A stretch of DNA of 64,000 nucleotides from Minisyncoccota bacterium (GTDB taxonomy: Bacteria; Patescibacteriota; Minisyncoccia; Phycocordibacterales; JABAAK01), in the NCBI GenBank assembly GCA_965204115.1, contig OZ241963.1, forward strand, positions 468,622-532,621, in the 5' to 3' direction. This document shows, piece by piece, positions 16,715 to 17,069 of this stretch. The translations under genes and the position numbers were made by a program. The notes below the pieces were generated by a model. The model did not search any database and was not told the DNA's origin. It worked only from the letters and a program-made list of their open reading frames with translations. Within the stretch, counting starts at the first letter, position 1, and each line of letters opens with the position of its first letter.

Positions 16715-16798
16715 GTAGTGTGCATTACTACGCACGCCACTCCCTCTCCTCGTAACAAAAATCTAAACATTTTTAAATTGCGGAGAGGGAGGGATTCG
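16715..16798. repeat. Direct repeat copy 1: tRNA-Ser 3' end (18 nt) plus about 65 bp of downstream flank; att-like
   Basis: Matches 16917..17000 over about 84 bp with 2 mismatches. Copy 1 is not attached to a tRNA body. Confidence 0.8.
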
Positions 16799-16916
16799 GC
16801 GTCAAGTTTCTAAACTCGCTATCGCTTGTTAAGAACTCCCTGCCCGGGCTCGGCGACAATTTCGTTTCGCTTCGCTCCACGAAATCGTAGACCGCCTGCG
16901 CCTTTCGAATCCCTCC

Positions 16917-17000
16917 GTAGCGTGCATTACTATGCACGCCACTCCCTCTCCTCGTAACAAAAATCTAAACATTTTTAAATTGCGGAGAGGGAGGGATTCG
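16917..17000. repeat. Direct repeat copy 2; overlaps the 3' end of the intact tRNA-Ser
   Basis: Same 84-bp sequence (gtagcgtgcattacta...gcggagagggagggattcg). The two copies are 202 bp apart. Confidence 0.8.
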
Positions 17001-17069
17001 AACCCTCGATACGGTTGCCCGTATGCCGGTTTTCAAGACCGGTGCCTTCAACCACTCAGCCACCTCTCC
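16983..17069 (-). tRNA. tRNA-Ser (anticodon UGA)
   Basis: Reverse complement: GGAGAGG acceptor, long variable arm (GCATACGGGCAACCGTATC), anticodon loop CTTGAAA, T-arm GAGGG-TTCGAAT-CCCTC, discriminator G. Length 87 nt. Confidence 0.8.

Follow-up and report, generated by a model that had tools for sequence, protein, structure and literature searches.

A conserved structured element built from tRNA ends, located behind tRNA genes of Candidatus Paceibacterota, is probably an undescribed RNA element and not an integration scar

The stretch of DNA analyzed here (the window, 64,000 nucleotides) carries on its minus strand an intact tRNA-Ser(UGA) gene without an encoded CCA (Rfam RF00005, 61.7 bits, 16983-17069; 16982-17069 per ARAGORN). 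The 3' end of this gene is part of an 84-nt direct repeat, which a repeat search recovered just as the initial annotation had described it: the copies at 16715-16798 and 16917-17000 are 98% identical, with 2 mismatches and a start-to-start spacing of 202, and the tRNA body is indeed attached to the 16917-17000 copy only. A 61-nt sub-pattern of the repeat has 2 exact occurrences in the 64-kb window, against 0.00 expected from shuffles. Each copy holds the last 18 nt of tRNA-Ser (19 by ARAGORN), i.e., C56 to G73 (window 17000-16983), followed by 65-66 nt of downstream sequence, which consists of a 31-nt AT-rich trailer and then 35 nt more. The duplication of the tRNA 3' end that had been claimed is real, with its breakpoint in the T-loop: identity starts at C56 and runs through G73 and beyond, as in a direct repeat of the att type, and the preceding two T-loop U's are not duplicated. 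A small hairpin, at 16920-16939 in the proximal copy, contains both mismatches. A 13-nt fragment of the tRNA 3' end, TTCGAATCCCTCC, is also present in inverted orientation as reported, at 16904-16916 and not at 16905-16917. Tandem Repeats Finder made no call for the array in the window, which is expected because the array comprises only 1.4 units.

Read on the tRNA strand, the repeat and its spacer resolve into a structured element of about 170 nt, for which we use the name X. The unit of X in the window spans 16781-16951 on the minus strand and contains, in order, P1', hairpin 1, P2', a 105-nt core, and a copy of tRNA nt 56-73. The features of the locus are as follows:

16983-17069, minus strand: tRNA-Ser(UGA)
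16952-16982, minus strand: AT-rich trailer (linker) from the tRNA to X
16942-16951, minus strand: P1' (GGAGAGGGAG), reverse complement of the acceptor 3' strand plus 3 nt of the T-stem
16917-16941, minus strand: hairpin 1, stem GCGUGCAU / AUGCACGC, loop AGUA
16904-16916, minus strand: P2' (GGAGGGAUUCGAA), reverse complement of tRNA positions 54-66 (inverted-repeat search; consensus helix 1)
16799-16903, minus strand: conserved core of X, 105 nt (covariance model R1 match at 16782-16918, 125.8 bits)
within 16799-16903, minus strand: AGGCGCAG junction of the core
about 16852-16896, minus strand: variable hairpin 2 of the core
16830-16851, minus strand: invariant stretch of the core, GAGCCCGGGCAGGGAGUUCUUA
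about 16805-16838, minus strand: hairpin 3 of the core
within 16799-16903, minus strand: UUGACGC of the core, adjoining the tRNA-end copy
16781-16798, minus strand: direct copy of tRNA nt 56-73, forming the 3' strand of the closing helices P2 and P1
16715-16780, minus strand: truncated second unit, X' (trailer copy 16750-16780, P1' copy 16740-16749, hairpin 1 copy 16715-16739)
16917-17000, no strand assigned: proximal copy of the 84-nt repeat (tRNA nt 56-73, 31-nt trailer, P1', hairpin 1; repeat search)
16715-16798, no strand assigned: distal copy of the 84-nt repeat (tRNA-end copy closing X, then the start of the truncated second unit)

P2' is the inverted 13-nt fragment of the initial annotation, and P1' and P2' taken together are antisense to the tRNA 3' end, an arm that in most units is interrupted by a variable hairpin. 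Per folding, P1' is able to pair either with the tRNA 3' end or with X's own 3' end. No promoter-like or terminator-like sites were found between tRNA-Ser and X on the tRNA strand of the window. Because the tRNA-end copy that closes X is followed by trailer, P1', and hairpin 1 once again, the 84-nt repeat amounts to the start of a second unit; judging by this order of parts, it is the junction between one full unit and a second unit truncated after hairpin 1. The hairpin 1 copy in X' has one G·U and one C·A at positions that are perfectly paired in the full unit, which may be taken as weak evidence that constraint acts on the full unit alone.

Related loci were reached via homologues of the 190-aa membrane protein adjoining tRNA-Ser and via synteny in small genomes, and genome-contig matches place the relatives in Candidatus Paceibacterota. 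The window spacer can be aligned to sequence behind tRNA-Ser(UGA) at loci L002, L003, L004, and L005, and to a truncated version at L001, while X is absent from the orthologous site at L016. Public collections were scanned for exact matches to a 22-mer of the core, GAGCCCGGGCAGGRAGTTCTTA. The scan located 5 copies of X in the complete genome OY764332.1: one behind tRNA-Ser(UGA) and, arranged in tandem, two and one partial behind tRNA-Ser(GCU) and two behind tRNA-Ser(CGA). On other contigs, X lies behind tRNA-Met, tRNA-Lys, and tRNA-Arg (CCU and GCG) or beside tRNA-like remnants, and it is thus known behind tRNAs of at least four identities. Covariance model R1 retrieved 18 copies at E <= 5e-21 in the roughly 215 kb searched, exactly one of them in the 64-kb window, where neither tRNA-Lys nor tRNA-Val has an X behind it. 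Each tRNA-adjacent copy is located downstream of its tRNA and on the same strand. The neighbors of X elsewhere are housekeeping genes (trigger factor, RuvA, Mur ligase, SpoU, Pol III delta). Copies at separate loci of one genome are nearly identical, and the core is nearly invariant across genomes, whereas the flanking protein is only about 70% identical. As far as its sequence and placement tell, X is a previously uncatalogued family of elements of about 170 nt in Candidatus Paceibacterota, positioned directly behind tRNA genes on the tRNA strand.

The ends of X match the local tRNA in most copies. Where the tRNA is Ser, Met, or Lys, the core gives way to the tRNA-end copy between T-loop positions 55 and 56. 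Two Arg-type copies have no tRNA-end copy of their own, and pairing there is available only with the upstream tRNA end and trailer. Behind tRNA-Lys at L013, the 5' arm runs antisense to the tRNA end for 23 nt without a break. Its ACUCGAA is antisense to a T-loop that is not palindromic, and its GGU is antisense to the encoded ACC, which shows the arm to be a genuine inverted copy of this end. We had also considered that the arm might be a sense copy of the tRNA's own 5' strand, which the antisense T-loop and ACC in the Lys copy rule out. Downstream of full copies, L013 also holds 5'-truncated 3' ends of X. At the non-Ser loci L010, L012, and L013, a canonical and apparently bidirectional terminator hairpin stands between the tRNA and X.

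Partial and complete repetition of the unit, with a period of 174-213 nt, recurs across loci. After the tRNA-end copy, L002 has a 46/46 nt repeat of tRNA end and trailer, L004 a 42/46 nt repeat, and L005 an 81/82 nt repeat that is followed by a second full unit. At L008, the plus strand carries two units and a third truncated after P2', and the minus strand carries a 209/209 identical tandem unit followed by 28 nt of the next; at L012 (tRNA-Met), the tRNA end is repeated together with its own terminator hairpin (about 52 nt). Terminal units are cut off after 20, 28, 46, 52, 84, or about 100 nt. The trailers are identical within a genome (49/49 in the window, 46/46 at L002) and unalignable between genomes, so the copies must have been either made or homogenized in place. 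At L008, every tRNA-end copy agrees with the local tRNA, while P1' is sometimes of the other type, giving G·U (a mismatched arm has GGAGGGGGAG opposite CUCCCUCUCC); this pattern would fit local gene conversion. Head-to-tail units of constant period, with identity higher within than between genomes, are what unequal crossing-over would be expected to leave behind.

Predicted secondary structures support X as a folded element. The structure alignment contains 11 distinct sequences, and the conservation of the core is partly an ascertainment effect, as these sequences were collected with the exact 22-mer. RNAalifold predicts 30 pairs, 13 of which show compensatory changes, distributed over P2 (7 bp, P2' with the tRNA-end copy), two 3-bp helices (both GGC/GCC), the base of hairpin 2, and hairpin 3. 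In the structure as named here, pairing extends to 94.1% of cells, compared with 83.4% for column shuffles, and the corresponding covariation scores are 0.323 and 0.140; none of 500 shuffles attains the observed value, and registers slid by 1-3 columns leave 21-50% paired. In the L013 Arg copy, both 3-bp helices have changed in a compensatory manner (GGC/GCC to ACC/GGT and GGC/GCC to GGG/CCC), and in L004 and L005 the sequences of hairpins 1 and 2 are wholly replaced with the hairpin form kept. Within the 105-nt core, three short helices covary and long single-stranded stretches are invariant; the core is closed by P1 (10 bp) and P2 (7-8 bp), both built with the tRNA's own 3' strand. It should be noted that DNA-level templated mutation of perfect palindromes can in principle inflate apparent covariation.

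Pairing is also strand-specific, as would be expected of a structured non-coding RNA with compensatory changes. On the tRNA-sense strand there are 12 G·U cells versus 2 A·C cells, and the minimum free energy of X is -84 kcal/mol in sense (z -6.3) versus -71 in antisense (z -5.6); the G·U excess and the better sense-strand fold point to the tRNA-sense strand as the one that folds, most simply as RNA. The closed form is not the sole possible fold of X, since P1' and P2' pair equally well with the upstream tRNA end. For instance, in the minimum-free-energy fold of a 370-nt precursor, the acceptor 3' strand of the tRNA pairs with the first P1' across the trailer, and X's own end still pairs with P2'.

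The initial annotation had placed the repeat at the boundary of an accessory region, and this part of its description stands: the interval from tRNA-Ser to the giant protein is a variable hotspot with differing cargo genes among relatives. The cargo is a ThyA-like gene and an HTH-PRTase gene at L001 (where it follows the truncated X) and L016, an M78 peptidase and an HTH-PRTase gene at L005, proteins without known function at L004 and L006, and, at L003, a type II restriction enzyme, two methyltransferases, and a UG17-like defense reverse transcriptase (DRT). L002 and L003 come from one sample, and the 6-kb defense island is present in L003 only, between two copies of X.

Pfam searches of 48 selected window ORFs found no integrase, transposase, or reverse transcriptase, and searches of the cargo genes of L001, L003, L004, L005, and L008 with Pfam, PHROGs, PADLOC, and the PDB found no recombinase. 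Likewise, no transposase, integrase, or TnpB/IS110-like gene was found in the 64-kb window or beside the 18 copies of X (about 8-16 kb around each). The sole reverse transcriptase near any copy is the defense-type enzyme in the restriction-modification island of L003. We ruled out X as the non-coding RNA of a retron or DRT belonging to this enzyme, for X is on the wrong side and strand and is present elsewhere without a reverse transcriptase. IMG/VR viral contigs gave no exact match to the repeat or to two spacer motifs; a looser 17-mer gave a single match there (L015), which we regard as chance, as it lies within an ORF and has no tRNA in its vicinity. Nor did X have a BLAST match among phages and plasmids. 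Rfam 15 offered no family for X, with noise at E 4.6 or tRNA-derived matches only (window and L010-L012). The sX4, Plastid-psbI-rps4, and tmRNA_permuted matches in the window are the tRNA itself, the last of these being sub-threshold (19.6 bits versus a gathering score of 47, E 0.45) and lying over the tRNA 3' end and trailer; no tmRNA-related match covers the core of X. Literature searches by topic and by core sequence returned no relevant description of X.

Taken together, we consider that X is probably an undescribed RNA element and no integration scar. A more specific reading, to which we give about an even chance on the sequence evidence, is that X is a structured RNA co-transcribed with its tRNA and amplified and truncated by local recombination. 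The tRNA promoter would drive a precursor of tRNA, trailer, and X; we infer this co-transcription from the shared strand, the lack of a promoter or terminator in between in the window, and the G·U bias for the sense strand. Covariation and folding show the next step, in which the two ends of X rebuild a helix from the 3' strand of the tRNA acceptor and T-stem, enclosing the core. The tRNA-like end so formed may allow release and stabilization by RNase P, RNase Z, and the CCA-adding enzyme. At the DNA level, the identical 18-50-nt blocks of tRNA end plus trailer would support unequal crossing-over and gene conversion, with tandem arrays, partial terminal units, and within-genome homogenization as the outcome; the arrays and the homogenized trailers are observed, and recombination is their presumed cause.

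Several features fit less comfortably with such a co-transcript. The terminators between tRNA and X at the Met, Lys, and Arg loci would argue against simple co-transcription there, and vertical inheritance of an RNA gene leaves it hard to see how the inverted and direct arms are both re-matched to a new tRNA, or why X is present in some close relatives and not in others (none at L016, truncated at L001). Due to these weak points, together with the alternative pairing to the tRNA and the Arg copies that lack a tRNA-end copy, a tRNA-targeting mobile element is a serious rival. According to this rival, which we regard as possible though doubtful, X is a non-autonomous element that invades tRNA 3' ends by way of an intermediate, either RNA or folded single-stranded DNA; with its complementarity to the tRNA 3' end, the 5' arm would be a targeting or guide segment, the enzyme would be encoded elsewhere in the genome, and insertion or copying would duplicate tRNA nt 56-73 and the trailer, making the 84-nt repeat a long target duplication. 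Mobility would account for the association of X with at least four tRNA identities, both of its arms fitting the local tRNA in most copies, for the constant T-loop 55/56 junction, and for the near identity of copies at different loci within one genome. It would also account for solitary copies flanked by repeats of tRNA end and local trailer (46 nt at L004, about 52 at L012, 84 in the window), for an orthologous site at which X is present (window), truncated (L001), or absent (L016), and for the 5'-truncated 3' ends downstream of full copies at L013. However, neither the surroundings of the 18 copies nor the window hold a transposase, integrase, or TnpB/IS110-like gene, and the L003 reverse transcriptase is of the defense type. 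The repeats vary in length (20-209 nt), which is not what a fixed target-site duplication would give, known transposition chemistry does not produce an inverted and a direct copy of the target together, and the P1' that lags behind the tRNA-end copy at L008 fits gene conversion better than one-step insertion. A bolder form of the proposal, in which X is a protein-gene-free RNA-guided mobile element whose 5' arm pairs with the 3' end of a chosen tRNA, whose core serves as a catalytic scaffold or recruits host enzymes, and which inserts or copies itself at T-loop 55/56 while regenerating the tRNA end, strikes us as unlikely. The RNA model and the mobile-element model could both be partly true.

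The initial annotation had favored an attL/attR scar, i.e., the trace of a tyrosine-integrase element that entered the T-loop of tRNA-Ser and was later deleted to about 120 bp, leaving a CIME-like remnant. An identity block from the T-loop through the tRNA 3' end is the classic location of integrase crossover, and both the cargo hotspot in relatives and the degenerate tRNA remnant at L006 agree with such a history. Nevertheless, no integrase was found in the window ORFs scanned or in the cargo islands of the site, searches of viral contigs, phages, and plasmids produced no true match to X, and the supposed remnant keeps its sequence and its structure from genome to genome and from tRNA to tRNA. 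The notion of a scar or micro-element remnant holds insofar as a discrete small element does lie between the repeat copies; this element is conserved and folded, however, and since it recurs behind tRNAs of at least four identities, the spacer cannot be treated as decaying junk. The repeat further includes a 31-nt trailer that is specific to each genome yet near-identical within it, which makes an attP brought in from outside unlikely. The comparison of relatives that the initial annotation called for points the same way, as L002 and L004 show the same kind of duplication without a larger element between the copies. The integrase-scar reading is thus largely refuted, and we consider it very improbable. 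Its fallback, a local tandem duplication, survives in part. As a full account, in which slippage made a functionless repeat and the likeness to other loci reflects common descent of an intergenic region, it is hardly credible. The 202-nt period, the 1.4 units at 98% identity, and the perfect 209-nt tandem copy at L008 do look recent; in opposition to this, the core is nearly invariant beside a flanking protein of about 70% identity, the same core is found behind unrelated tRNAs in unrelated gene contexts, and the compensatory changes, with the strand bias of the G·U pairs, speak for selection acting on structure. Local duplication is refuted for the whole element, for which it is too simple, and remains valid only for the immediate origin of the second, partial unit.

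X resembles several known systems, and it fails a defining feature of each of those compared here, i.e., att repeats, tRNA mimics, trailer sRNAs, folded att sites, and guide RNAs. With att repeats and CIMEs at tRNA genes, the X locus shares a direct repeat with its breakpoint in the T-loop, an intact tRNA, and a hotspot of accessory genes; it differs in the missing recombinase, the conserved folded element between the repeats, the genome-specific trailer within the repeat, the extra inverted copy of the tRNA end, and the tandem units. The acceptor-like helix of non-coding RNAs that mimic tRNAs could recruit tRNA-processing enzymes. Such RNAs (tmRNA, Y RNA/YrlA, viral tRNA-like structures, mascRNA) are like X in that their 5' and 3' ends form this helix. 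Unlike them, X has no T-loop or D-arm mimic, with the 105-nt core standing at the T-loop position, and in place of a generic helix it has a literal copy of the strand of the neighboring tRNA; X is also multi-copy and tandem. We rejected the possibility that X is itself a tmRNA or another tRNA-like gene, as it has no T-arm and neither ARAGORN nor Rfam makes a tRNA or tmRNA call over it.

Small RNAs from tRNA trailers (3' ETS) and tRNA-linked co-transcripts are cut out by RNase P or RNase Z. Like X in the window, they directly follow a tRNA on its own strand, and neither a promoter nor a terminator intervenes; in contrast to X, with its 105-nt conserved core and tRNA-derived arms, trailer RNAs are short and are not conserved as a folded family across tRNAs. 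Integron attC sites conserve structure and not sequence, and they require IntI next to attI. Both attC and the attP(+) of CTX phage are similar to X in folding strand-specifically and in having a stem that is a duplex copy of the chromosomal target, and variable cargo can sit between copies of X (L003) as between attC sites. An integron-like attC identity for X was set aside due to the invariant core and the lack of IntI; usually, moreover, only a 30-nt trailer separates the copies.

MITEs and REPINs are short, non-coding, and multi-copy with terminal inverted repeats, as is X. In X, however, the inverted repeats vary with the tRNA next to them, a short target duplication of fixed size is lacking, and the copies are confined to tRNA 3' flanks and always in the tRNA orientation. 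The IS110 bridge RNA (PMC11208160) and OMEGA RNAs are comparable to X in length (about 170-180 nt) and in combining a conserved scaffold with variable, target-matched segments. They are encoded beside a recombinase or nuclease within their element, a neighbor that X lacks, and the two guide-like segments of X differ from theirs in pairing with each other.

Paceibacterota belong to the Candidate Phyla Radiation (CPR), and their genomes of about 0.65-0.85 Mb are strongly streamlined, yet several copies of X are kept. If X is an RNA, it would represent a new class of tRNA-linked non-coding RNA that mimics tRNA ends, from a phylum about whose RNA biology very little is known. If X is mobile, it would represent a new mode of targeting tRNA genes without a linked recombinase, and if RNA-guided mobility were true, a programmable tRNA-targeting element of an undescribed and categorically new kind. 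The calling of genomic islands routinely relies on duplicated tRNA 3' ends, for which X is a source not made by an integrase, and repeats of the X type could mislead island predictors in CPR genomes. A tRNA 3' remnant of the conventional, degenerate sort was seen at L006, 26 nt past the tRNA.

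A defence island of ~6 kb (L003:8863-14700) is bounded by two copies of X, the conserved folded element found 3' of tRNA genes, in one of the related contigs with a syntenic tRNA-Ser locus. No integrase was found within this island, and the L002 contig, recovered from the same sample as L003, does not carry it. The genes identified between the two X copies are as follows:

L003:8885-10090, minus strand: UG17-like defence reverse transcriptase
L003:10952-12202: type II restriction enzyme
L003, within 8863-14700: two type II methyltransferases

At a flank where L003 has a full X, L002 has a terminal partial unit (L002:8948-8992) made up of P1', hairpin 1 and the 3' strand of P1, i.e., P2', the core and P2 are missing. 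The occurrence of a full X and a core-less unit at the same flank represents a presence/absence polymorphism of the X core. The hairpin loop of the L002 unit is inverted, reading TACT as opposed to AGTA. In another related contig, L004, an AT-rich tandem repeat of ~100 nt (L004:8920-9090) starts at the exact end of the terminal partial X unit.

Two tRNA-Ser flanks without the X core were seen in the related contig L006. X is absent behind its tRNA-Ser(UGA), where a degenerate conventional tRNA 3' remnant (GGGTTCAAATCCCTCCTCTTCA) lies 26 nt past the gene (L006:8688-8712). A second tRNA-Ser (L006:5429-5580), with the anticodon GGA by eye and no ARAGORN call, has a trailer, P1' and hairpin 1 behind it, again with no X core. 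This core-less module may represent the native trailer of tRNA-Ser.

Short, 5'-truncated pieces of the X 3' end are located 3' of full copies at L013:1640-1720 and L013:5830-5900, on a contig with X behind tRNA-Lys and tRNA-Arg. In these pieces ..TTAGAA(A)CTTGACGCC leads into the beginning of the T-loop, and they look as if the array had decayed or as if copying had begun at the 3' end. On a further contig, L017, a non-coding stretch of ~350 nt after tRNA-Ser (L017:8684-9045) has an X-like 3' end (TTAGAAACTCGCCGCCGAATCCCTCTCCG) and was not recognized by R1, the covariance model of X; this stretch may be related to X as a longer or divergent form. Both a 177-aa gene and the tRNA are present on this contig as inverted duplications. 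A LAGLIDADG homing-endonuclease-like ORF (L009:868-1551) lies ~600 nt away from an X copy, and none was seen at the other X loci.

Defence or toxin-like genes are dispersed across the window:

6592-7767: Fic protein, adjoining tRNA-Lys
40441-41874: Schlafen AlbA_2 / HATPase_c_4 protein
59751-61459: M78 peptidase and DUF4411 pair

The window also encodes an HTH-phosphoribosyltransferase fusion protein (44753-45751), 28 kb from tRNA-Ser, whereas proteins of ~326 aa with the same HTH (with or without PRTase) domain signature directly adjoin tRNA-Ser in L001, L005 and L006. The window locus itself is flanked by two giant Cys-rich secreted-type proteins (13377-16676 and 17608-22224), in which PG_binding_1 was the sole Pfam domain found. 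The former has internal DNA repeats spaced ~540-610 nt apart, and the latter has a duplicated Cys module of ~60 aa and a SYSPR tandem tail.
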